The notes beneath the pieces are model-generated. The model was not told the origin of the DNA. It did not search any database and was given only the letters and a program-made list of their open reading frames with translations. 43,558 bases of DNA from Promethearchaeota archaeon (lineage in GTDB: Archaea; Asgardarchaeota; Lokiarchaeia; Sigyniarchaeales; SOKP01). The position numbers and the translations under genes were made by a program. Positions 6,670 through 28,924 of this stretch are shown here, piece after piece (the stretch's first letter is position 1; each line of letters begins with the position of its first letter). The DNA is taken from NCBI GenBank assembly GCA_018238625.1, contig JABCSY010000025.1:1-43558 (forward strand), written 5' to 3'.

Positions 6670-9306
6670 TCAAATTAGTTCAATTAGGAGTTTTTGATTT
6701 TCTCTAATAGAAAATGTTTCTGAAATAGAAATTTCTATGCTCGAATTGTTGCGTATTAATTTTGCGTTTATTACTTTGTCCTCCTTTTCAGTGTCTAATA
6801 TTTTACAATATTTGATTTTATCAAGATTGAGTTTTCCTATAGATTTTAAAAGAATTGATTTAAGACTGAGGTTTCCATAAGAGACACATATAGAAAATTT
6901 TAATCCTCTCTCACTTAGTTCTTGACTCACTTTACCCCAAGCAGTATTAGTAATAAAAAACGATCGAAAATTTGATGGATTTAATCTCGGTGCGAGTAAA
7001 AATTGTTTAAGCTCTACAGAATAAGAGATCCCCGTTAACGCGTGAAGTAAAGTCCACGAAGACATGGGTCTTACATAGTGATCGCCACATTCCACTTCAT
7101 TCCAAGGACTTCTATGTGAACCATCGTATCTTTTTCTAATCGAATTAATAATCTTTAAACCTTCATCAATTCGGTTTGTATAGATACATAATGCGGCAAT
7201 TTCATATTCTAGACCAGTCCATACTTCATCTGTGTAATATGTTGGAACGGTAGGTTTATTTCCATGAGGCCAAGTACAAGTTAATAATCCAGAGTCCGTA
7301 GGTGATGCAAATATCCTTGGAGTTTGGGTTATTCCTTCAAGCGATTCTTTAAAATTGTATTTAATTATTGATTCTATTGCCTTATCCACATGTTCAGTGG
7401 GTAAAATATATCCAAAACCTAAGTGAAACGCCCACCATTGGCCAAATAATTGGTCAGAAAAACATCCAATTCCATATTGATATTCTTTTATTTCAGTTTC
7501 GTCGTATTTTTGGATGTAATATTCACCGTTCCAACATTCTTTATCAAGAATCATTCGACCAGATTCAAATAAATTCCTACATTTGCTAGCCCAATCTTCT
7601 AAATTTAATTTCGTAGCAATTTGTTCACAGGCAAGAAGTGCTACTAAATAAAGCGATCCTATAAATGTATTAACGCCATAAATAGAACAATCGTACGTAT
7701 TAGGTTGAGCACAAGAAATTATGCCATCTAAATTATTGTCGTAATCTTTAAATATATACTCCATTAGTTTTTGAACATTAGGCCAAGATTCCTCTAAGAA
7801 TTTTAAATCGGCGGAGATTAGAAAATCGCGATAGATCTTTAAAATCATTCCAAACATTCCGTCTATAGCAGGAGGGACATCTCCTGGGTCAGGAGTCATT
7901 TCAAATTGTGGTAAGTACAATGGAATAACAGCGCGATGAGGTAAATAACCTAATTTATGTTGAGTCTTAAACTCCGTTGCTCGCATAGTTCTTTCCAGTG
8001 TAGGAAATAGATGTGCTAGGCTAAATTCATAATTCCAAACATGTGTACAGTTTAGAGGGCAACTCCCTCCTGATTTCTTTCCAGTAGAAACTCCGTTGCA
8101 TCCCTCAAATCCGTAAAAAGACCCGTCTCTTACCCAAAAACAAGTTGGAGTCCTAATTGTCGAAAGTGTTGCAGAAATCGAAGTCAATACTTCAGAAGGA
8201 AGCGTACTATAAAAAAAGTCTTCGTGAAACCTAAATGTGTTGTCTAATAGAGATGATCGATTGTTTCTCACATATTCTATAACTCTTATTGAATTGCTAA
8301 ACCACTCGTTATATCGATTCCCTATCCAATATTCCGTTTTCATATCCGGAAATAAAGCATTATTCAAACGCCAATCCATAAAGCGATTTGGAAAGTTCCA
8401 AGCCAAATAAAACGTCATTACTGCTTCTTCATCGGGTTTTAAGATTCTTTTCGATGCTAGGCTTCCTGTATATGTCTTTCCGATTTTACTCGTATCGTTC
8501 TCGCTTGGTTCCATCAAAACTCCTTTTTGCGAAAATTGAGACCAGAAACTTTCAAGATCCTCCCATTGAGTTGATATCATAGCATCAGGTTGGTCAATAG
8601 CTAGCGTTAAGTCACCGTATCGTTTATCGGTTTTGAGAAGTAATTTTGATTTCATATGAATAGCATTCCAATTACCCACACGTTTGTGAATGTTCAAATT
8701 ACCTCCAAATAGAGGGTTAGAATCGCCTCTTAATGTTTTTAGTCCATCCCATCCTATATAATTTAATAAATTTCCTAAAAGAATTACTTCGATATTCTCT
8801 TTAGTAATGTTTTTAACTTGAAATTGGAAAATTATTACAGGCAGTCCTGAGTTTTTTGGATCTAAAGGTATAAACGGATTAAAGGCTGTCAAATTGATCT
8901 CAATTGGGAGCAGAGCATCCTTAAATTGCAAAAATGAAATAGGATATTCGCCGTCAAATTTAATGTCTTCAACTTGAGGTAGCGCATTAAATAATTTTTC
9001 CATTTCTTTACTTATTCTGTGATCCCCAATGGATTTAGCCGGGATAAAATTAGGTCTTTCATGAGGTTTGGAACTAATCAATGCACGTGAAATTATTTTT
9101 TCATCTGAAACATTTAATTGGCGCGTTCTCACGGCAAAAAAACAATTTGGTACATACGAGCGATGATCTATCTGATTATTGATTTGCCATTGTTTTAAAA
9201 GTCCGTCTCCACCTATAGCAATAGAGCCCGTACCTATCCCTCCAAGAGGCATAGCAGAACATCTTAGTTTTCCATCGGTTAGAGTGAGAATCCCTTTAGG
9301 TATCAT
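6670..9306 (-). CDS. GH116 family glycoside hydrolase (non-lysosomal glucosylceramidase/GBA2-like)
   Basis: AMPLGGIGTGSI N-terminus, FYGFEGC, CTHVWNY, QPNTYD, SDQLFGQ, EVWTG, SPWNEVECGDHYVRPMSSW. Confidence 0.9.
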   Translation of the reverse strand: MIPKGILTLTDGKLRCSAMPLGGIGTGSIAIGGDGLLKQWQINNQIDHRSYVPNCFFAVRTRQLNVSDEKIISRALISSKPHERPNFIPAKSIGDHRISKEMEKLFNALPQVEDIKFDGEYPISFLQFKDALLPIEINLTAFNPFIPLDPKNSGLPVIIFQFQVKNITKENIEVILLGNLLNYIGWDGLKTLRGDSNPLFGGNLNIHKRVGNWNAIHMKSKLLLKTDKRYGDLTLAIDQPDAMISTQWEDLESFWSQFSQKGVLMEPSENDTSKIGKTYTGSLASKRILKPDEEAVMTFYLAWNFPNRFMDWRLNNALFPDMKTEYWIGNRYNEWFSNSIRVIEYVRNNRSSLLDNTFRFHEDFFYSTLPSEVLTSISATLSTIRTPTCFWVRDGSFYGFEGCNGVSTGKKSGGSCPLNCTHVWNYEFSLAHLFPTLERTMRATEFKTQHKLGYLPHRAVIPLYLPQFEMTPDPGDVPPAIDGMFGMILKIYRDFLISADLKFLEESWPNVQKLMEYIFKDYDNNLDGIISCAQPNTYDCSIYGVNTFIGSLYLVALLACEQIATKLNLEDWASKCRNLFESGRMILDKECWNGEYYIQKYDETEIKEYQYGIGCFSDQLFGQWWAFHLGFGYILPTEHVDKAIESIIKYNFKESLEGITQTPRIFASPTDSGLLTCTWPHGNKPTVPTYYTDEVWTGLEYEIAALCIYTNRIDEGLKIINSIRKRYDGSHRSPWNEVECGDHYVRPMSSWTLLHALTGISYSVELKQFLLAPRLNPSNFRSFFITNTAWGKVSQELSERGLKFSICVSYGNLSLKSILLKSIGKLNLDKIKYCKILDTEKEDKVINAKLIRNNSSIEISISETFSIRENQKLLIELI

Positions 9307-22876: not shown

Positions 22877-25063
22877 ATGACGATTTTAATAATATCGGAA
22901 AAAAATAAAGCCGCAAAGGCAATAGCCGAAGCATTAGGTCCTGTTACGATTATAAGCAAAACAAAATTCTTAAAAGTATATCGGGTAAATTCTAAGGATA
23001 TTTACGTTGTTCCTCTTCGAGGACATATTTTAGAGTATAAAAACACCGATCAATATAAAAGTTGGACGAAATCTAACCCTAGGGAAATAATTACGAATCC
23101 AAGCGCAATCGAAAAAGCCTCCAAAAGTTATTCTCGACCATATATTAGCGCGCTAAAAGAGTACGCTAGATTATGCGACGAATGCGTTATCGGTACCGAT
23201 GCGGATATTGAAGGATGTAACATTGGACTTTTCGACGCCTTACCGTTCGTTATTAAAGCTAATAAAACGATTAAGGTGCGTCAGCTATGGTTAAGCTCGT
23301 TACAAAAAAAAGAGATTATTTCTAAATATTCAAATTTGATAAATCCAAAGTGGAGTTGGGGTGAGACAGGCGAGGCAAGAGCAATAATTGACGCAGTAAT
23401 TGGGTTTTCAAGCACTAGAGAGGTTACAAATACGCTCAGACCACTTTTAACCGAGATTAATGCTAAGTTTGTGTCGATAGGAAGGGTACAAACGTCTCTG
23501 CTCTATTTAATATTTTTAAGGGACCAAGAAATAGGTCACTTTGTACCTGAACCATATTGGACAATTAAAGCGAACTTAAGCTATAAAACCCATATACTAA
23601 AAGCCTTCCACGATAAGAACCCTTTTATTAAAGAGAAAGAACTTGAAGCAAAAAACATTCATCATAAAATAAAAAATGAAAAAATAGCTGTAATATTGAG
23701 CAATAGTAAAAATACTAATGTTATAAACCCTCCAACGCCTTTAAATACTTCAAAAGCGCTTGTTTTATTAACTAGGAAATTAAAGATTAGCGCAAACGCT
23801 GCCATGAACGCCATGAACGCGCTCTACTTAAATAAGATAATTTCTTATCCTAGGACCGATAGCGATAAATACCAAACAAATTTTAACCATACCCAATATT
23901 TGGATAAATTCAAACTTCACACTAACTATGGAACTTACACATCAAAATTGTTAACTCAAAAACACGTAACTCCTACAATAGGGAAAGTTGACGCCGGAGA
24001 TCATCCTCCCATTACTCCCTTAGAGAGCTTGGAACAAAATAGCTCTAGATTTGAACATAACATTCAAAGAAGAGTTTACGATTTGTTAGCTCGACATTAT
24101 TTAGCTCTTTTTGGAGAACAGGCAAAAGAATCGAGGACAATTTTAAAAATATCTATAAAAGAAGAACCATTTACATCACGATTGGTTTCGTTAGTCTCAA
24201 CTGGGTTTTATGGAATTGCGCCTTTCTTAAAGAAATCCTATCAACCAACGATAGAGATCGATGCAAAGCAGCTTCCAATTAAGGATATTCAATTAAACGC
24301 AAAAGAAACTCAACCCCCACCAAAATACACTGATACTACTCTTTTGAAATTGATGGAGAGAGAACACTTAGGAACTAAATCGACTCGTCCAACTATAATA
24401 AAAATACTTATAGACCGCAAATTAATCTTGCGAATTGACAAAAACCGTTTTAAAACAACGGAGTGGGGCAAATTTATAATAGAAGAGCTAATTAAAGTAT
24501 GGCTACCATTCTTAAAACCTGAATTTACGCGATTTGTGGAAAAATTACTCGAAGACATAAAGGAAAAAAGGAAGTCTAAAGAAGAAGTTTTAAAAATTGT
24601 AAAAAAGATTTTCCTTGAATTGTTTGATAAGTTCCTTAACAACAAAAATGCTATTACGGTAAGATTCGATAGCGTTAAAGCTAATTTAAAAATAGCAATG
24701 CAACAGGACTTTAAACAAAAAAGATTTCCAATGACTACTGCTAATTGCCCAACTTGTAAAAAAGTTCCAATGAAACTAGTTACGACCTCGCAAAAGAAAA
24801 GGTTTCTCGCGTGTTCAGACGCAAACTGCAAATCTTATCTCTCCGTTCCTAAAACAGGTAGAATTACAATATTAAAATCTTCCTTCTGCTCGTTATGTGG
24901 ATTTAATGTCTTTAAAATTGTGAAAAGAAAAAATGGTAAGCCTTTACCTTATTACATTTGCCCAAAATGTTGGAGCGCTAGCTTTAAGAACGATTCTGTT
25001 AATGGATTTTGTTCTAAATGTGAAACTCATAAAATATTAAATGAACAGTGCGTAAAAAAATAA
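22877..25063 (+). CDS. topA: Type IA DNA topoisomerase with C-terminal zinc fingers
   Basis: Toprim ISEK and GTDADIEG, SIGRVQT, catalytic ISYPRTD, DHPPITP, LGTKSTR, several CxxC pairs. Confidence 0.93.
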   Translation: MTILIISEKNKAAKAIAEALGPVTIISKTKFLKVYRVNSKDIYVVPLRGHILEYKNTDQYKSWTKSNPREIITNPSAIEKASKSYSRPYISALKEYARLCDECVIGTDADIEGCNIGLFDALPFVIKANKTIKVRQLWLSSLQKKEIISKYSNLINPKWSWGETGEARAIIDAVIGFSSTREVTNTLRPLLTEINAKFVSIGRVQTSLLYLIFLRDQEIGHFVPEPYWTIKANLSYKTHILKAFHDKNPFIKEKELEAKNIHHKIKNEKIAVILSNSKNTNVINPPTPLNTSKALVLLTRKLKISANAAMNAMNALYLNKIISYPRTDSDKYQTNFNHTQYLDKFKLHTNYGTYTSKLLTQKHVTPTIGKVDAGDHPPITPLESLEQNSSRFEHNIQRRVYDLLARHYLALFGEQAKESRTILKISIKEEPFTSRLVSLVSTGFYGIAPFLKKSYQPTIEIDAKQLPIKDIQLNAKETQPPPKYTDTTLLKLMEREHLGTKSTRPTIIKILIDRKLILRIDKNRFKTTEWGKFIIEELIKVWLPFLKPEFTRFVEKLLEDIKEKRKSKEEVLKIVKKIFLELFDKFLNNKNAITVRFDSVKANLKIAMQQDFKQKRFPMTTANCPTCKKVPMKLVTTSQKKRFLACSDANCKSYLSVPKTGRITILKSSFCSLCGFNVFKIVKRKNGKPLPYYICPKCWSASFKNDSVNGFCSKCETHKILNEQCVKK

Positions 25064-25117: not shown

Positions 25118-25501
25118 CTAATCCATTTTGGGTGTATATTTGTTATAAGCAGCTCGAGTAAGACCTACGTAATTATCGGAAATCTTATAATACAACTTTC
25201 CGTTAACTACTTTCTTTTCAAGATAGTCGCTTTTTAAACTGTGGTTCAAAGCATGGATCATCGTCCCTAAAGTAACGGCACCCATGTATTTATGTTGCTT
25301 TTTTGCGATCCTTATCAAATCTAATTCCGAATGCCAAACGCCATCAATTAACCCGACTAATATTTCTTTTTTGATAGGAGCTTTAATTTCTTTAATTTTG
25401 TTAAACAATTGAGAGTAATCTGGTTTATAATATTTTTTCAAGACTTTTGCTTGTTCATATCTATTTTTTGGAAAACCTAATTCCATATTTAAAAACACCA
25501 C
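25118..25501 (-). CDS. Small basic winged-helix-like protein
   Basis: IKKEILVGL...SELDLIR...GAVTLGTMI...LEKK...YYKIS helix-helix-wing pattern. Confidence 0.6.
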   Translation of the reverse strand: MVFLNMELGFPKNRYEQAKVLKKYYKPDYSQLFNKIKEIKAPIKKEILVGLIDGVWHSELDLIRIAKKQHKYMGAVTLGTMIHALNHSLKSDYLEKKVVNGKLYYKISDNYVGLTRAAYNKYTPKMD

Positions 25502-25636
25502 TTAAGATGATATTATATTAAGAAATAATACCCAAGTAATAGTTTTAATAAATTGTAATACGCTTGTAATACGTTTATCGTAAAAATACAATTGAAAACG
25601 AGTAAAATTTATCTTGAACGAACTTTGAACTATTTA

Positions 25637-26752
25637 CTATAATAGGTTCTCTGGGATGCCATCTTTAAAATATTTAGCACGCGTTACCCAATTACTTTGA
25701 AATTCAGGAATGCTAGCTAAGATCGAGCCACCAACCCAAACAGAAAAGACTCTTTCTCGAGGTGCTATAATTTTGATCACTTGGTTCTTTTTCTTTCTCC
25801 GTGCTAATTCAAATTCTAATTCTTGATACATTCTAGATTTGAAATTTGGAAACATCGAAGAGCCTCCAGATAGAAAGATGTTATTCAATAAGTCTGGGCG
25901 GATATCGACGTCACACATTTCAATTACGTCCATAATGGCTTCTGTTAAAGAATCTTCTTCCAAATCTAATGCTGGATTAAAAAAAAGCTCAGGTACAGCA
26001 AATCTTTCTTTACTCAAAGAAATGGTAGAACCATCTGGTAGAGAATATTCTTTTTCATATTGTTCAACTCTTTTTAAATCTTCTTTATAATCGAGCGAGA
26101 CGAAGCAAGCTTTTTCTTTGAGAGCTCTTACCAGTTCTTTTCTAATTGAAGAGTCAGCTGAAAAGCCACTTTCTCCTAATATTTTTTCCATGTACTTTGT
26201 TAAGGTTCTTCCACCAATCTCAAGAATCCTTACTGCATGGTCTAACTTGTATCCCTCGTAAATTGGCACTATTCTCGTAATACTATCCCCTATCTCAACC
26301 ACTAACCCTGTTTGAAATCCTCCAGCATATAAAGTAAGCATAGAATCTAAAACGGGATAAAACGCGTTGCACTGGTATTTTTCTAAAAACAATTCAAATA
26401 ACCGCTTTATATCCCCGTATGGAAACAATGGGTGTACGGCAAATAGTACGTTGACTAAAGATGGATCAACTCTTAAATTGTAGAAAATATAATCAATTAT
26501 TTTTTCAAACGAGAGCCAGTCTTGAATTATTCCTTTATCTATAGGATAAAAAACTTTATACAAACCTATTGATTGGATTTCGTCCCCTACATAATATTCG
26601 TCTTGTTTAATACCCGCGTATTCGTAATCGATCTGCCTATATTTAGGTTTTCCTACTATGGTAAAAAAGATTTGAGTTGGCATATCTTCCCCAGCATAAC
26701 CGGCTTTTGTCGAGAATTGCCCAATATCCAAAACAACAGTAAGATTGCCCAT
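25637..26752 (-). CDS. Actin-family protein (divergent Asgard actin-related protein)
   Basis: Collinear with actin: VVLDIG..STKAGYAGED.P, YVGDE, YPI..GII.DW, GD...IVPIYEGY, LKEKACFV, YSLPDG, ERF.VPE.FF.P, CDVDIR.DL..NI.LSGGSSMFP, R..SVWVGGSILAS. Confidence 0.95.
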   Translation of the reverse strand: MGNLTVVLDIGQFSTKAGYAGEDMPTQIFFTIVGKPKYRQIDYEYAGIKQDEYYVGDEIQSIGLYKVFYPIDKGIIQDWLSFEKIIDYIFYNLRVDPSLVNVLFAVHPLFPYGDIKRLFELFLEKYQCNAFYPVLDSMLTLYAGGFQTGLVVEIGDSITRIVPIYEGYKLDHAVRILEIGGRTLTKYMEKILGESGFSADSSIRKELVRALKEKACFVSLDYKEDLKRVEQYEKEYSLPDGSTISLSKERFAVPELFFNPALDLEEDSLTEAIMDVIEMCDVDIRPDLLNNIFLSGGSSMFPNFKSRMYQELEFELARRKKKNQVIKIIAPRERVFSVWVGGSILASIPEFQSNWVTRAKYFKDGIPENLL

Positions 26753-26777
26753 AATTTCTATTATTATACAATGCTTA

Positions 26778-26797
26778 ATTAATATAACTTATTTTCT
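26778..26797 (-). promoter_or_regulatory. Candidate archaeal BRE/TATA promoter for the actin-related gene
   Basis: Minus strand reads AGAAAATAAG-TTATAT about 30-35 nt before the ATG at 26752. AT-rich background makes this weak. Confidence 0.35.
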
Positions 26798-26822
26798 AAT
26801 TCTCCAATTAATCTATTTATTT

Positions 26823-27569
26823 TTAGATTAATAAAATCTTCAAAGGAGTGTATTCTGTCATCGGAATATAAGCTTCTCCATACTTTGAATTAATTTCGTT
26901 ACCGCGTAAAATTGAAGTATCTTCAGCCCAATCCAAAACTCTTTCTAACACTTCTTTCTGAGATTTATAAACCTTATTAAAAATTTCTTTTTTTTCTACC
27001 CAATATTTTTCAATATTAACTATTACAAAGACAGAACCTTCTATATATTGAAATTTACAAGAGGGCGATTCGTAATAATATACCCCTAGAGGTTTCCAGT
27101 TTCTCTCGTGTCCTCCGTAGGCTTTTCCCGTCGAACAATGATAAATAGCTTCTCTTGTAATTAAAGATAAATTCCTATGAACTCTATGAAAATCTGAAAA
27201 GTGGGGTAATAAAATCACCTGAGGGCGGAAGTCTCTTATAAGATTTGTGACTTCAGAGATTATTTCTCTTTTGACTTCCAAATCTGAATATCCTAATTCG
27301 ATAACCCTACACTTTAAAGCAGTTCTGACTAAATCCAGTTCTTGTTTTCGCTGTTCTAAGATATTCTCCTTGTGGGCAGTTTTAGCATATCCACCTAACC
27401 CACTTGTAGCTACTACTACAATAATTTCGGAGCCTAATGCTTGATATTTAAGAATTGTTCCGCCACATGAGACAATTTCGTCATCTGGATGACCCGCAAA
27501 GACCATTAATCGTTTAGGAACAACAATCGGAATATCTTTTTCAGTTACAAGAAAATTTTTTATCTCCAC
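26823..27569 (-). CDS. PIG-L/LmbE family Zn-dependent N-deacetylase
   Basis: FAGHPDDE..CGGT, R..E, IRDFRP, D.H..H, KSQ, YGEAY. Confidence 0.9.
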   Translation of the reverse strand: MEIKNFLVTEKDIPIVVPKRLMVFAGHPDDEIVSCGGTILKYQALGSEIIVVVATSGLGGYAKTAHKENILEQRKQELDLVRTALKCRVIELGYSDLEVKREIISEVTNLIRDFRPQVILLPHFSDFHRVHRNLSLITREAIYHCSTGKAYGGHERNWKPLGVYYYESPSCKFQYIEGSVFVIVNIEKYWVEKKEIFNKVYKSQKEVLERVLDWAEDTSILRGNEINSKYGEAYIPMTEYTPLKILLI

Positions 27570-27651
27570 AAATAATGTCTTCTCGTTTTAGGATTTAAAA
27601 TTTTGCGAATTATTACAATAAAAATAAAAAAATGCTAGAAGTATATCGCTT

Positions 27652-28362
27652 TTATTCTCCTCTCATTATTTTCTTTAGGCGATTTAACTCTTCTAACATT
27701 TCATCGCGTAAAGAACTCAATCCTCCTCCCGCACTAGGTGCCGTTGCTGGGGCCGCTATAGGAGCTGCAGGTCGAGGGGGTGCACCCGATACGGGCGCAG
27801 CGGGAGGTGCTGGTCTTTTGGCAAATGATGGAGCTTGAACTACTCCCGAATTAGGAGCTTGTGGAGGTCCACCAGATGTTGGAGGTAATTTTGGAGCCGG
27901 TGGTAGATTAGCGCGCTTAGGAGGAACGCCAGCCTTTGGAGCTTGTGGAGGTCCACTTGTTGCGGGTCTCTTTGGAGGTCCACCGGAAGCTGGAGCTTTT
28001 GGAGGACCGCTTCCAGGTTTCTTAGGGGGAACGCCAATTGCGGGAGCCATGCTCGCTTGAGCAGTAGCAGGTGCATGTTGTGCAGAACCGGCACTACCGC
28101 TCAATAAACTAAATAATGTGCTCGCAGCAGCAGTCTTTGCAGTTCCACTTGCGGGAGCAACAACTTTTTTAGAAGAACTACTAACAGTTTGAACTTCTGG
28201 TTTTAATGAAACTTCTTTCAAATCCTTTAACGCTTTATTTAACGACTTTATGAAATCGTTTATTCCCTTAACTGTGTCGTCTAGGTCGTCACTTAACGAT
28301 TGTAGACCTTTTTTCATAAAGTTTACGACGCGCTCTATCTTTTTGTATTCCTTAGAAACCAA
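27652..28362 (-). CDS. Coiled-coil / Pro-Ala-Gly-rich / C-terminal amphipathic-helix (WH2-like) protein
   Basis: N-terminal heptads, repeated (S)GGPP[KQ][AR]P units, C-terminus GGGLSSLRDEMLEELNRLKKIMRGE. GAGG SD before a TTG start. Confidence 0.8.
   Translation of the reverse strand: MVSKEYKKIERVVNFMKKGLQSLSDDLDDTVKGINDFIKSLNKALKDLKEVSLKPEVQTVSSSSKKVVAPASGTAKTAAASTLFSLLSGSAGSAQHAPATAQASMAPAIGVPPKKPGSGPPKAPASGGPPKRPATSGPPQAPKAGVPPKRANLPPAPKLPPTSGGPPQAPNSGVVQAPSFAKRPAPPAAPVSGAPPRPAAPIAAPATAPSAGGGLSSLRDEMLEELNRLKKIMRGE
27854..27956. repeat. 19-bp internal direct repeat in the Pro-rich gene
   Basis: GGAGCTTGTGGAGGTCCAC at 27854-27872 and 27938-27956 (GPPQAP units). Confidence 0.9.
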
Positions 28363-28657
28363 TATTTAATCAATTCCTCTAATTTTTCTAATCTATTATA
28401 AGTAGAATAATTTAGTAATATAGTAGTAATTGTATTATATTAATTTATATTTTTATTTTTAATTTTTTATAATACTTGAATATGGATATATGGAAAAAAT
28501 ATCAATGGTCTGAGTTTATTTTGCTAGTTTTATTATTCGAACATTCTTGAACTCTATAAAAAAAAAACAATTAAAAGTGCCAAATCTTATAATATTATAT
28601 ATCATTCTTCATTTGAAAATTTAATAATTATTTTTTAATATTAATAGGTGTTAAAGT

Positions 28658-28924
28658 ATTCCAAAGCGAGAACTCTTCATTAAACGAGTTTATGAAATTG
28701 TAAATGAGTTAAAAATCCCATTGATCGATGAGCGTGTATACGATAAAGTCACTTTTAGTGGTAGCGCCGCCATAGCGAAAGTTGTGTTTAAATTTGAGGA
28801 AGACGAATCTGTAATTCGTGGATTCTTAGGTTTGGCTGAATACTTTCATACTGTGGTAATAAAATCTAAAGACCAATTCTATATACCACACGCAAATATT
28901 CTCTTTCAATTGATCAGCTCATAA
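28658..28924 (+). CDS. Small hypothetical protein, probably 88 aa from an ATT start
   Basis: Frame is open back to the TAA at 28652. AGGTG SD (28646-28650) precedes ATT at 28658, giving (M)PKRELFIKRVYEIVNELKIPLIDERVYDK... Confidence 0.65.
   Translation: MPKRELFIKRVYEIVNELKIPLIDERVYDKVTFSGSAAIAKVVFKFEEDESVIRGFLGLAEYFHTVVIKSKDQFYIPHANILFQLISS

Follow-up and report, generated by a model that had tools for sequence, protein, structure and literature searches.

The genes of the locus

The window, that is the whole stretch of 43,558 nucleotides that was analysed, derives from a Lokiarchaeia-type Asgard archaeon and carries four co-oriented genes on its minus strand, all of which are real. They encode a proline-rich protein (PRO), a PIG-L deacetylase, an actin-family protein (ARP) and a small wHTH-like protein, and the list of open reading frames returns the ends (Table 1) and the gaps of 82, 70 and 135 nt which the first-pass annotation had assigned to them. 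The T-tract behind the PRO gene and the TATA-like box before ARP, on account of which co-transcription had been called uncertain, are both present, with A/T-rich TATA-like boxes lying about 25-33 nt upstream of the PIG-L and ARP starts; such strings are common since the genome has a G+C content of about 31%. RNA-library contigs from relatives (90-95% alike) span the 5' part of PRO, SMALL, PIG-L, ARP and the wHTH-like gene.

Table 1. Position of genes, putative signals and PRO segments in the window
Feature	Position	Strand	Remarks
SMALL	28658..28924	+	88 aa, conserved alpha/beta protein; divergent orientation relative to PRO
PRO	28362..27652	-	236 aa ORF; Pro-rich
PRO residues 4-51	28210..28353	-	One long helix; AF2 pLDDT ~95 over residues 11-40
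PRO residues 75-87	28102..28140	-	Short conserved helix, AASTLFSLLSG type; AF2 confidence low, ~52-61
PRO residues ~105-205	27748..28050	-	Pro-rich disordered arm; pLDDT 45-58 over most
PRO residues 153-161	27880..27906	-	LPPAPKLPP motif; conserved Pro columns
PRO residues 215-233	27664..27720	-	Near-invariant amphipathic helix SLRDEMLEELNRLKKIM; candidate docking helix; AF2 pLDDT ~90
T-run	27616..27633	-	Possible archaeal terminator, directly 3' of the PRO stop codon; read from the sequence
TATA-like TTTTAAAT	~27593..27600	-	After the T-run, 3' of PRO
PIG-L deacetylase	27569..26823	-	248 aa ORF; Pfam PF02585; LmbE-like
ARP	26752..25637	-	371 aa ORF; Pfam PF00022 Actin
Small wHTH-like protein	25501..25118	-	127 aa as called; 3' of ARP
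Type IA topoisomerase-like gene	22877..25063	+	Convergent with the block; Pfam Topoisom_bac E 1.7e-85 and Toprim

ARP matches the Pfam actin family with an E-value of 5.1e-90. It was described earlier as divergent, and rightly so: it is 42-43% identical to the three Lokiactin-type genes of the same genome, which encodes six actin-family genes altogether, and it is not a Lokiactin because it falls into a clade of its own with 100/100 support, in a tree that contained no eukaryotic Arp sequences. The Lokiactin branches of this tree are very short (0.01-0.13), and members of the ARP clade turned up in f1 and f2 alone. Among the best 60 matches to solved structures the closest relatives of ARP are actins, not Arps (9wc4_A, 'HC1 actin', 3.7e-92). 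The P1 loop reads DIGQFSTK against DNGTGISK in Lokiactin, and the catalytic Q and H present in Lokiactins are lost, D standing in place of the Q of the MQAVLSLY motif and R in place of the H of the P2 loop. A basic insertion of four residues (RRKKK) is carried in addition, and the groove-lining residues differ as well (GGFQTG versus SGRTTG, IPEFxxNW versus LKTFxxMW). One Lokiactin and three ARP-like homologues of patchy distribution are described for L. ossiferum in the relevant part of the Nature 2022 report (PMC9834061), and the 371-aa gene encodes an actin-family protein of that kind.

The PIG-L assignment holds, with a match to PF02585 at E 8.7e-24 (84.9 bits, cut-off 28.2); against NCBIfam BshB1 the protein scores 72.4 bits, under the cut-off of 182.5. 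The wHTH label of the 127-aa protein is less secure: Pfam gave no match, and a profile of 12 orthologues weakly matches the archaeal protein AspA (E 0.042-0.15), so that the protein is possibly a winged helix. In f2 the homologous domain stands at the C-terminal end of proteins of 578-791 aa rich in N, Q and S, whose genes lie 5-7 kb from the ARP orthologue.

SMALL has an open frame of 28655..28924, in which the codon aligned with the ATG of its orthologues is ATT. Its AF2 model reaches a mean pLDDT of 92.5; the fold found no match (Foldseek best E 0.14, VIA best Z 4.4) and the sequence found none in Pfam. The family is present in 181 of 400 genomes of the phylum. Among 1.84 billion proteins it is represented by 27 clusters, all of 33-115 aa and none of them a fusion.

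The proline-rich protein and its C-terminal helix

Judged by its sequence relatives, PRO belongs to a previously undescribed family confined to Asgard archaea. The records of its 192 relatives are labelled Lokiarchaeota or Promethearchaeota and, where the proteins are named, they are named hypothetical; the Atlas cluster containing PRO has Asgard members only, and the Pfam search of PRO gave nothing significant. One listed cluster of relatives carries the JGI label 'DNA polymerase-3 subunit gamma/tau'. Of 400 genomes of the phylum, 220 carry a match to the family profile, including 120/134 in f1, 14/14 in f2, 4/4 in f4, 7/7 in f5-f7 and 16/19 in f19.

The order first proposed for the 236-aa protein, a coiled coil followed by a Pro-rich region and a helix with LKKI, is borne out by the AF2 model, which has three helices (residues 4-51, 75-87 and 215-233, the last of them holding LKKI), disorder along the Pro-rich arm and a pTM of 0.22. 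In an alignment of 44 sequences F15, S40, L41, K43, D47 and L48 of the N-terminal helix, presumed to serve assembly or partner binding, are near-invariant, and L83 and L87 of the short helix are invariant. The arm contains 16% Pro. The pattern PP.PK[LMI]PP occurs once among the 7154 ORFs of the genome, and the strings PPPPKLPP and PPPPIMPP are shared with two of the three f2 proteins bearing the wHTH-like domain.

In the end helix L218, R219, E221, M222, E225, R228 and I232 are invariant in the 44 sequences, which come from two classes, and the invariance of the charged residues R219, E221, E225 and R228 suits a protein interface. The hydrophobic moment of the helix stands at the 96.6th percentile of the C-termini of the genome, its net charge is +1 and it holds four acidic residues. 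LKKI lies within this predicted helix and the chain ends four residues beyond it; the second K varies between K, S, T and E across the family (LKSIM, LKTIM, IKEIF). No WH2 domain was found by Pfam in PRO, even at E 10, or in its last 48 residues, and the whole protein has no Trp, acidic tail, connector helix or any element after LKKI.

The build recurs in PRO2 (149 aa), another family found in Asgard archaea only. Among the 7154 C-termini of the genome the tail profile of PRO2 picks those of Arf/Rag-like GTPases (E 0.0047, 0.0076 and 0.019); of the GTPase tails, the PRO tail profile reaches a single one, C122, at a non-significant E of 7.5. The idea of a shared tail rests partly on a post-hoc pattern, since neither tail profile retrieves the other family and hhalign of PRO with PRO2 aligned just five Pro-rich columns. 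The tails of PRO2 and C122 have low hydrophobic moments (33rd-34th percentile).

Conservation of the gene order

The linkage of PRO and ARP stands within f1 and breaks down in the sister family f2. In every one of the 105 f1 genomes whose PRO and ARP share a contig, which represent 13 genera and are kin, hence not independent, the two lie at most 5.9 kb apart, and in 94 of them at most 1.3 kb. In three complete f2 genomes the distance is about 44, 100 and 272 kb, and PRO is unlinked there to any actin-fold gene. An ARP-clade gene was not found in two PRO-bearing genomes of families f4 and f7. Given the f2 distances and these two genomes, the PRO-ARP linkage is not ancestral, and the ancestral ARP-plus-activator module which had been envisaged for the locus is very unlikely.

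Among 13 f1 genus loci SMALL and ARP are each kept in 11, the wHTH-like gene, following ARP, in 9 and PIG-L in 7; the topoisomerase-like gene is near the block (within +-5 kb) in 6. Past SMALL, any one gene recurs in 0-2 of these loci, with the exception of a 505-aa ORF about 4.6 kb out (4 of 13). The steadiest neighbour of PRO is SMALL, on the side opposite ARP: it adjoins PRO in the 11 f1 loci and again, in varying orientation, in f3, f5-f7 and f19, the last of which belongs to another class. The PIG-L gene, which had been tied to the supposed module, is present in the window; it belongs to the block only facultatively, being present between PRO and ARP in 62 of the 105 genomes and missing in 32 (judged from gap size), and it also follows PRO in the one f3 genome. 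In three genomes of the same genus a 310-aa opposite-strand gene lies between PIG-L and ARP. The block runs SMALL, PRO, PIG-L (optional), actin paralogue and small wHTH-like protein. The f1 synteny may partly reflect inherited gene order.

Possible functions of the proline-rich protein

The earlier proposal regarded PRO as a possible WASP/WAVE/WASH-like activator of ARP in an ancestral module to which PIG-L, as a lipid-modifying enzyme, was perhaps linked. With these nucleation-promoting factors (NPFs) and with Ena/VASP PRO does share the order of an oligomerising helix, a Pro-rich region and a short amphipathic helix with Leu and a basic pair (LKKI), and it bears an apparent likeness to the consensus of EVH2 (Ena/VASP) and of WH2. 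The tight linkage in f1 also speaks for an activator, and the literature search turned up no Asgard NPF in print. What defines an NPF is lacking, however: in comparison to eukaryotic WH2 factors PRO has neither a Pfam WH2 nor C and A regions nor Trp, the second K of LKKI is variable, and LKKI sits inside the helix, presumably three residues nearer the hydrophobic face than in WH2. The family is far wider than the ARP clade, PIG-L is lacking between the genes in 32 of 105 genomes and can be split from ARP by the 310-aa gene, and ARP has lost the catalytic Q and H. ARPC2 and ARPC4 were not found in the genome, by a search equally silent in every control genome. Domain order and f1 linkage thus survive from the proposal, and the activator itself is the least likely of the readings weighed here. 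A WH2-like motif of the LKKT type has been described in Asgard two-domain gelsolins, and in the relevant parts of these reports such motifs are placed only between gelsolin domains (PMC9433394, bioRxiv 10.1101/2025.11.30.690169). The tail might alternatively bind an MIT domain of Vps4 or another MIT-like protein, making PRO an ESCRT-linked adaptor with an actin neighbour by coincidence. Like the MIM1 tails of Vps2/24/46, for which Asgard C-terminal Leu-rich MIM1-like helices are reported in the passages concerned (PMC7240154), it closes the chain, behind a flexible region, as a short amphipathic helix rich in Leu. The two ESCRT-III proteins of this genome end in helices similar by eye, ...KELEDELNKLKSRD and ...KLEDEIDKLRKELET, and the genome has nine MIT-like matches. 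The likeness to the MIM1 consensus is presumed. Neither ESCRT-III tail, however, is in the top 25 of 7154 C-termini ranked by the PRO tail profile, a core of the ESCRT-III kind is missing from PRO, which gave no Snf7 match, and ESCRT genes are not neighbours at any examined locus, which leaves this adaptor distinctly improbable. Hardly better placed, and still unlikely, is a membrane-targeting helix which would tether SMALL or a filament via a long spacer, much as the tails of FtsA or MinD and linkers of the ZipA type do. The high hydrophobic moment favours it, as do the related tails of Arf/Rag-like GTPases, which usually require a membrane anchor, and the on-and-off neighbourhood of PIG-L, whose family acts on GlcNAc-lipids and related substrates. 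Membrane helices, however, usually conserve pattern and not sequence, whereas four charged residues are invariant here; the net charge is merely +1 with four acidic residues, and the moments of the tails of PRO2 and C122 are low.

Two further explanations start from the neighbours. ARP and the wHTH-like protein might form a ParM/ParR-like or AspA-like pair for the positioning of DNA, in which a filament-forming or force-generating actin fold would work with a DNA-binding adaptor, PRO and SMALL being accessories. The wHTH-like gene does lie directly 3' of ARP in most f1 genus loci, the topoisomerase-like gene comes next, in convergent orientation, and the best match of the wHTH-like profile (E 0.042) is to AspA, a winged-helix partition protein; the binding of ParR in the groove of ParM is a known mode, as the arcadin-2 report mentions (PMC5173319). 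The AspA match is nevertheless far from significant and DNA binding by the wHTH-like protein is putative; in f2 the domain tails long N/Q/S-rich proteins and is no small adaptor, and the absence of the catalytic Q and H from ARP argues against a dynamic ATP-driven filament. This pair is considered very unlikely. The serious contender, albeit a doubtful one, is that PRO and SMALL constitute a two-gene module of another process, with SMALL as the partner and ARP, PIG-L and the wHTH-like gene as mere neighbours in an inherited order. SMALL-PRO is the sole adjacency kept across classes (f1, f3, f5-f7, f19), in all three relative orientations, and the ranges of the PRO and SMALL families largely coincide (f1-f7, f19, f20, f21, f26, f27). 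Outside f1 the neighbours are housekeeping genes that differ from locus to locus. RNA contigs that bridge PIG-L and ARP in two studies, with none bridging PRO and PIG-L, are a weak hint at most. Against mere inheritance, the f1 block is kept and its far flank is not. Moreover, SMALL in f2/f4 adjoins the wHTH-domain protein in two genomes (G038, G027), is 3 and 12 kb off in two others (G171, G032) and has the ARP orthologue at a distance of 8-19 kb; the same gene set therefore keeps re-associating. The Pro motif of PRO in two of three f2 wHTH-domain proteins likewise speaks against unrelated neighbours.

The reading that we favour, tentatively and for the locus as a whole, is that of a gene block conserved at family level and not of an Arp2/3-NPF module, in which PRO may act as a tether that docks, by its end helix, onto a conserved partner. 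Every binding step of this tether is what we infer from layout, conservation and gene context. The long N-terminal helix would serve assembly or hold a partner, for which the adjacent SMALL is the obvious candidate, and the short conserved helix would be a second module. A flexible Pro-rich arm, about 100 residues long and bearing one conserved short motif (LPPxPKLPP), would then carry the near-invariant amphipathic helix to a very conserved partner; the likeliest docking site would be the hydrophobic groove of a protein with the actin fold. WH2 or thymosin likewise dock in the actin groove.

The closest known counterpart is arcadin-2, the crenactin regulator of Pyrobaculum calidifontis (eLife 2016, PMC5173319). 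In the sections of that report which concern its layout, the core of arcadin-2 is followed by an unstructured linker, which is not conserved, and by a small C-terminal helix, which is; this helix alone binds the hydrophobic groove of crenactin, the arcadin-2 gene sits within an actin gene cluster, and ParR-ParM is named as the bacterial case that works in a like manner (PMC5173319). PRO likewise comprises a core, a linker and a conserved C-terminal helix and has in f1 the same kind of neighbour; the likeness concerns layout and gene context, and docking of PRO is putative. There are also differences: the arcadin-2 contact is attributed, in the passage on the interface, to Trp and other hydrophobic residues (PMC5173319), while PRO has no Trp, the linker of PRO is rich in Pro and contains a motif that is conserved, and in most lineages the PRO family has no neighbouring actin paralogue. 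For L. ossiferum the relevant part of a recent preprint mentions that 'an Arf GTPase' co-precipitated with Lokiactin (bioRxiv 10.1101/2025.11.30.690169), which, together with the GTPase tails picked by the PRO2 profile, lends the tether some side support.

SMALL, as the steadiest neighbour, could instead be the partner of the end helix. Other points that count against the tether are the missing WH2 match, the variable second K of LKKI inside the helix, the f2 genomes in which PRO stands apart from any actin-fold gene, the failure of the PRO and PRO2 tail profiles to recover each other, and the groove-lining residues of ARP, which differ from those of Lokiactin. Under the tether reading, the partner should be very conserved and wider in range than the ARP clade, because PRO ranges broadly, ARP is restricted to f1 and f2 and the Lokiactin branches are short. 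The candidate partners of PRO would therefore be the universal Lokiactin and, in f1, perhaps the neighbouring ARP as well.

The gene block around PRO and its conservation

The four co-oriented genes of the first-pass annotation, separated by gaps of 82, 70 and 135 nt, are matched exactly in the ORF list, and its PIG-L and actin labels are borne out by Pfam, where PF02585 and PF00022 were matched above their cut-offs (see the table of features). The PIG-L protein reached 84.9 bits against a PF02585 cut-off of 28.2 and carries near its N-terminus the sequence GHPDDE, an HPDD-type motif which we take to be metal-binding; it fell under the cut-offs of all NCBIfam thiol-pathway equivalogs (BshB1, Mca, MshB). 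Pfam gave nothing significant for PRO, the Pro-rich protein, or for the 127-aa protein. A profile built from 12 orthologues of the latter matched AspA, a winged-helix protein, with E values of 0.042, 0.05 and 0.15, which lends weak support only to its putative wHTH label. In one genus of f1 (the family of the window in a 400-genome phylum set) this wHTH-like gene is tandemly doubled 3' of ARP, the actin paralogue, and three genomes congeneric with that of the window have an opposite-strand gene between PIG-L and ARP.

As read from the sequence, a T-run follows the PRO stop codon and A/T-rich boxes are placed about 25-33 nt ahead of the PIG-L and ARP starts, in a genome of about 31% G+C. Logan contigs from four RNA-labelled runs are 90-95% like the window and therefore come from relatives, and contigs of this kind show neither strand nor ends. 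The PIG-L/ARP junction is bridged in contigs of two studies (X17, 25502-27272; X19, 25793-27545), and separate RNA contigs cover the 5' part of PRO, the SMALL gene on its other side and the wHTH-like gene. RNA cover is nearly lacking over the Pro-rich middle of PRO (about 27750-28087), and no RNA contig spans the PRO/PIG-L gap, through which one run, judged to be probably DNA, does pass; such lack of cover proves nothing. It can be said that the genes of the block are probably expressed in relatives, and that there is at most a weak hint of PRO being transcribed apart from PIG-L and ARP.

Among the matches listed, PRO was located in 115 f1 genomes, and an ARP-clade gene, taken at E<=1e-125, is present in 116 of 135 genomes. 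Both genes were located in 111 f1 genomes and share a contig in 105 of them (among the matches listed), a count which overstates the independent support because the genomes are kin; in the remaining six, whose assemblies are fragmented, they are found on separate contigs. The gap between them is at most 300 nt, without PIG-L in between, in 32 of these 105 genomes, 301-1300 nt, with room for PIG-L, in 62, 1301-2600 nt in six and 2.7-5.9 kb in five. When gene retention was counted within 5 kb on either side of PRO in 13 f1 genus-level loci, SMALL and ARP were each kept in 11, the wHTH-like gene in nine, PIG-L in seven and a topoisomerase-like gene in six, the three genes just beyond SMALL in one or two and, further beyond, one 505-aa ORF in four and others in none, so that the core block is better kept than its immediate far flank. 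The conserved PRO-ARP linkage stands for the whole of f1 with its 13 genera, where all pairs on one contig lie within 5.9 kb, and fails outside it. In three complete genomes of the sister family f2 the ARP orthologue is 44, 100 and 272 kb away from PRO, in f3 PIG-L stays beside PRO and ARP is absent there, and the neighbours of PRO in f2, f4, f5-f7 and f19 are varying housekeeping genes. Directly ahead of the f2 ARP orthologue there is a conserved Ras-family small GTPase (70-75% identity among the three genomes), and a conserved Zn-ribbon protein of 450-490 aa and a protein of 85-97 aa are also found beside it. A common GTPase link was considered and dropped, since the f2 GTPase shares just 34% identity with the one next to PRO in another genome (G030), a level ordinary for Asgard small GTPases.

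By adjacency, SMALL is a steadier partner of PRO than ARP is. This alpha/beta protein, absent from the first-pass annotation, adjoins PRO in f1, f3, f5-f7 and f19, the pair being divergent, tandem or convergent. At the aligned start the window has ATT and the orthologues ATG; an Ile codon is also found there in several other f1 genomes (IPKRELF, IAKKELF, IGKAELF), and either a non-AUG start is used repeatedly or the position is systematically miscalled. The standard ORF call shortens SMALL to 67 aa, beginning from an internal TTG. The family was detected in 181 of the 400 phylum genomes (f1 122/134, f2 13/14, f19 16/19, f26 3/3, f27 4/4), a range which largely overlaps that of the strong PRO matches. 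SMALL is predicted to fold as a small alpha/beta domain (pLDDT 92.5), for which neither Foldseek against the PDB (best E 0.14) nor VIA-align wide (best Z 4.4) gave a convincing relative; Pfam returned nothing, the Atlas only Asgard hypothetical clusters, and no fusions were found. A second paralogue is encoded in the genome of the window (G000), and many f1 genomes have two profile matches. In f2 and f4 SMALL is adjacent to a wHTH-domain protein in two genomes (G038, G027) and 3 and 12 kb off in two others (G171, G032), and its distance from the ARP orthologue is 8-19 kb. In f2 the wHTH-like domain makes up the C-terminal end of longer proteins (578-791 aa), which are N/Q/S-rich and apparently disordered; PPPPKLPP or PPPPIMPP, like the conserved motif of PRO, is present in two of these three. 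Four gene families thus meet in differing arrangements, which we take as a moderate hint, and not more, that they share a process.

Coordinates of the features discussed (window positions unless a contig of the window's genome, C, or a fetched locus, L, is named)
Feature	Position	Strand	Remarks
PRO	28362..27652	-	ORF, 236 aa
PIG-L protein	27569..26823	-	ORF, 248 aa; Pfam PF02585, E 8.7e-24
ARP (actin family)	26752..25637	-	ORF, 371 aa; Pfam PF00022, E 5.1e-90
wHTH-like small protein	25501..25118	-	ORF, 127 aa; no Pfam match
SMALL	28658..28924	+	ORF, 88 aa; open frame 28655..28924
Second SMALL paralogue	C60:36276-36542	+	88 aa
Actin-family genes of the window's genome	C138, C16, C47, C74, C77 (L001-L006)		three Lokiactin-type and two divergent genes besides ARP
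ORF with PRO-like tail	C74:25468-26205	-	245 aa
PRO2	C188:16030-16479 (L102:4031-4480)	-	149 aa
GTPase with PRO2-like tail	C122:465-1946 (L101)		long C-terminal extension
GTPase with PRO2-like tail	C175:33-794 (L103)		long C-terminal extension
GTPase with PRO2-like tail	C194:13689-14933		long C-terminal extension
Doubled wHTH-like gene, one f1 genus	L057:7132-7503 and 7540-7905	+	
Gene between PIG-L and ARP, window's genus	L046:6439-7371		310 aa; opposite strand; hydrophobic, membrane-like, no Pfam family
Same gene	L047:5781-6716		as above
Same gene	L048:2357-3289		as above
f2 Ras-family GTPase	L098:5280-5864	-	complete genome
f2 Ras-family GTPase	L099:8791-9381	+	complete genome
f2 Ras-family GTPase	L100:7726-8295	-	complete genome
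f2 wHTH-domain protein	L098:11403-13286	-	
f2 wHTH-domain protein	L099:2606-4981	+	
f2 wHTH-domain protein	L100:12170-13906	-	

ARP, the PRO family and the question of Arp2/3 activation

Judged by its sequence, ARP is a member of the PF00022 actin family: it scored 302.4 bits (cut-off 27), covered profile positions 6-401 of 410, and its closest solved relatives are actins, with 9wc4 'HC1 actin' first (the best 60 listed are all actins). The Pfam model finds six actin-family genes in the genome of the window, three at 424-441 bits, ARP at 297 and two lower. The three Lokiactin-type genes are 82-84% identical to each other and 42-43% identical to ARP. Besides ARP there are two more divergent genes of the actin fold, one encoding 506 aa and the other 391 aa. 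When 29 actin-fold proteins, none of them eukaryotic, were placed in a maximum-likelihood tree, the ARP clade stood apart from the tight Lokiactin clade with 100/100 support and a stem length of 1.02. It contains the gene of the window, those of eight further genera of f1 and, for three f2 genomes, one protein each. A search of one f4 and one f7 genome (88% and 94% complete) gave no member of the clade, the best actin matches there being Lokiactins. In comparison with Lokiactins, the P1 loop of the ARP clade reads DIGQFSTK and not DNGTGISK, the Q of the MQAVLSLY motif is replaced by D (f1) or G (f2), the P2-loop H by R, a four-residue insertion is present (basic in f1) and several residues lining the groove are altered. 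The altered positions presumably correspond to the catalytic Q137 and H161 and to the groove; the Q is also named in PMC5173319. With its separate clade and altered catalytic residues, ARP is by these measures not a Lokiactin.

PRO belongs to a family without a name and, as far as literature searches reach, without a paper. The 192 relatives found in a large protein collection are, where named, called hypothetical, with the exception of one cluster, JGI 'DNA polymerase-3 subunit gamma/tau'; their source records are labelled Lokiarchaeota/Promethearchaeota and the Atlas cluster is Asgard-only. The family profile has matches in 220 of the 400 phylum genomes, comprising 120/134 in f1, 14/14 in f2, 1/1 in f3, 4/4 in f4, 7/7 in f5-f7 and full-length ones in 16/19 of f19, which belongs to another class; the weaker matches in several other families may be compositional. 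With an alignment of 44 sequences, AF2 predicts a helix at residues 4-51 (pLDDT about 95), a weak helix at 75-87, a disordered arm and an end helix at 215-233 (pLDDT about 90), with a pTM of 0.22. In the same alignment L218, R219, E221, M222, E225, R228 and I232 of the end helix are invariant, and LKKI varies in the family as LKSIM (f5-f7), LKTIM (f3) and IKEIF (f19). The arm has one conserved motif, LPPxPKLPP, with a single occurrence among the 7154 ORFs of the genome. Searches of PRO in Pfam, NCBIfam and the PDB sequences gave sub-threshold noise only (AIRC, DUF948, an antibody chain at E 1.4), and a search with the PRO tail (residues 190-236) for longer proteins that carry it came back empty, which is weak evidence. 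Among 7154 C-termini the second-best match of the tail profile (E 2e-4) is a 245-aa ORF on contig C74. It has the end ...GLRQEMLGELNSLKNIQKG..., may be part of a split gene because a 217-aa ORF follows directly, and is 15 kb distant from the gene for the 506-aa actin-fold protein on that contig.

The first-pass annotation proposed that PRO is an activator of the neighbouring ARP resembling the nucleation-promoting factors (NPFs) of Arp2/3. An acidic tail with a conserved Trp is a defining feature of WASP-family NPFs. PRO has 0 Trp in its 236 residues and no acidic tail (last 12 residues ELNRLKKIMRGE); its C-terminus, ...LKKIMRGE, ends four residues past an LKKI whose second K is not conserved, without a connector (C) helix, and PF02205 (WH2) has no match in the whole protein at E<=0.1 or in the last 48 residues at E<=10, within the limit that short motifs can escape HMMER. 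On these features PRO is not an NPF by family membership, and what is left of that proposal is the linkage to ARP in f1 and the layout. The idea of an ancestral Arp-plus-activator module is likewise unsupported, as the PRO-ARP linkage dissolves outside f1. PF05856 (ARPC4) and PF04045 (ARPC2) gave nothing in the genome of the window (97.9% complete), nor in the all-prokaryote control genomes, and a literature search, judged by title or abstract, returned no Asgard nucleation promoting factor. PRO may act in a WH2-like mode; in PMC9433394 and bioRxiv 10.1101/2025.11.30.690169 Asgard WH2-like motifs are placed between gelsolin domains.

Possible targets of the end helix

Our preferred but tentative reading is that PRO is a helix-tipped tether which may dock on an actin fold. 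The end helix would insert into the hydrophobic groove of that fold, more plausibly in Lokiactin than in ARP: the target must match PRO in conservation and spread, and Lokiactin fits this better than the fast-evolving, patchy ARP. The layout of PRO equals that of arcadin-2, in which a core is followed by an unstructured linker and then by a small conserved C-terminal helix which, according to PMC5173319, binds the hydrophobic groove of crenactin, an arrangement said there to be the same for ParR on ParM. The arcadin-2 gene is located beside an actin homologue, whereas PRO adjoins ARP in f1 only, and plain inherited synteny is a live explanation of the PRO-ARP block.

Other partners of the helix are also live alternatives. 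Binding to an MIT domain is suggested by both ESCRT-III proteins of the window's genome, which by eye end in similar helices, and by the Asgard MIM1-like tails described in PMC7240154, yet the ESCRT-III tails of this genome do not appear in the ranking by the PRO tail profile. A membrane would suit a helix so strongly amphipathic, but less so one whose charged residues are invariant. The helix might also grip SMALL.

PRO2, GTPase tails and the meaning of the family

A second Asgard-only family of the same build, PRO2, has at least 195 relatives and comprises a helical N-terminal stretch of about 75 aa together with GPPGGPPPPP runs and the invariant tail ...SLRGAIMGELKQLFAKR. In the genome of the window the PRO2 tail profile picks the C-termini of Arf/Rag-like GTPases (E 0.0047-0.019, ranks 2-4 of 7154), and PRO is not among its matches. 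The GTPase on contig C122 is matched by Pfam Gtr1_RagA and Arf, and both it and the one on C175 carry KPPPPPPK just ahead of the tail; the C175 gene, which begins at an end of its contig, may be the C122 gene in a copy from another strain. Homology between PRO and PRO2 was tried with hhalign, which aligned 5 Pro-rich columns only, and the families were not joined. A tail pattern matched 6 ORFs against 0.33 in shuffles, a count which is descriptive only because the pattern was framed after the sequences had been seen. As reported in bioRxiv 10.1101/2025.11.30.690169, the Lokiactin co-precipitate of L. ossiferum included 'An Arf GTPase'. A wider and rather unlikely interpretation is that PRO, PRO2 and several Arf/Rag-like GTPase tails share one module of a Pro-run and a near-invariant helix docking into the Lokiactin groove, and would give Asgard archaea a range of actin adaptors, Pro-rich and tipped with a helix, of which some are directly wired to small GTPases. 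In one Lokiarchaeial family the PRO adaptor would have been recruited beside the catalytically altered ARP and the wHTH-like protein. If this is true, the adaptors would resemble Ena/VASP and WASP-family proteins in their Pro-rich/WH2 logic and might be a foreshadowing of it.

The PRO family is found in nearly every Lokiarchaeia genome searched and its end helix hardly changes across classes. The Asgard actin regulators known, as PMC9433394 and bioRxiv 10.1101/2025.11.30.690169 describe them, are essentially profilins and gelsolins, and the family may bear on how Asgard filaments are nucleated, anchored or coupled to signalling. If the helix grips SMALL, an MIT domain or the membrane, PRO would still be a pan-Lokiarchaeial module and the link to eukaryotic NPFs would be lost. 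If it grips Lokiactin, PRO would be the first Asgard actin adaptor that is neither a gelsolin nor a profilin, and a concrete starting point for tracing how actin assembly factors of the Pro-rich/WH2 type arose.
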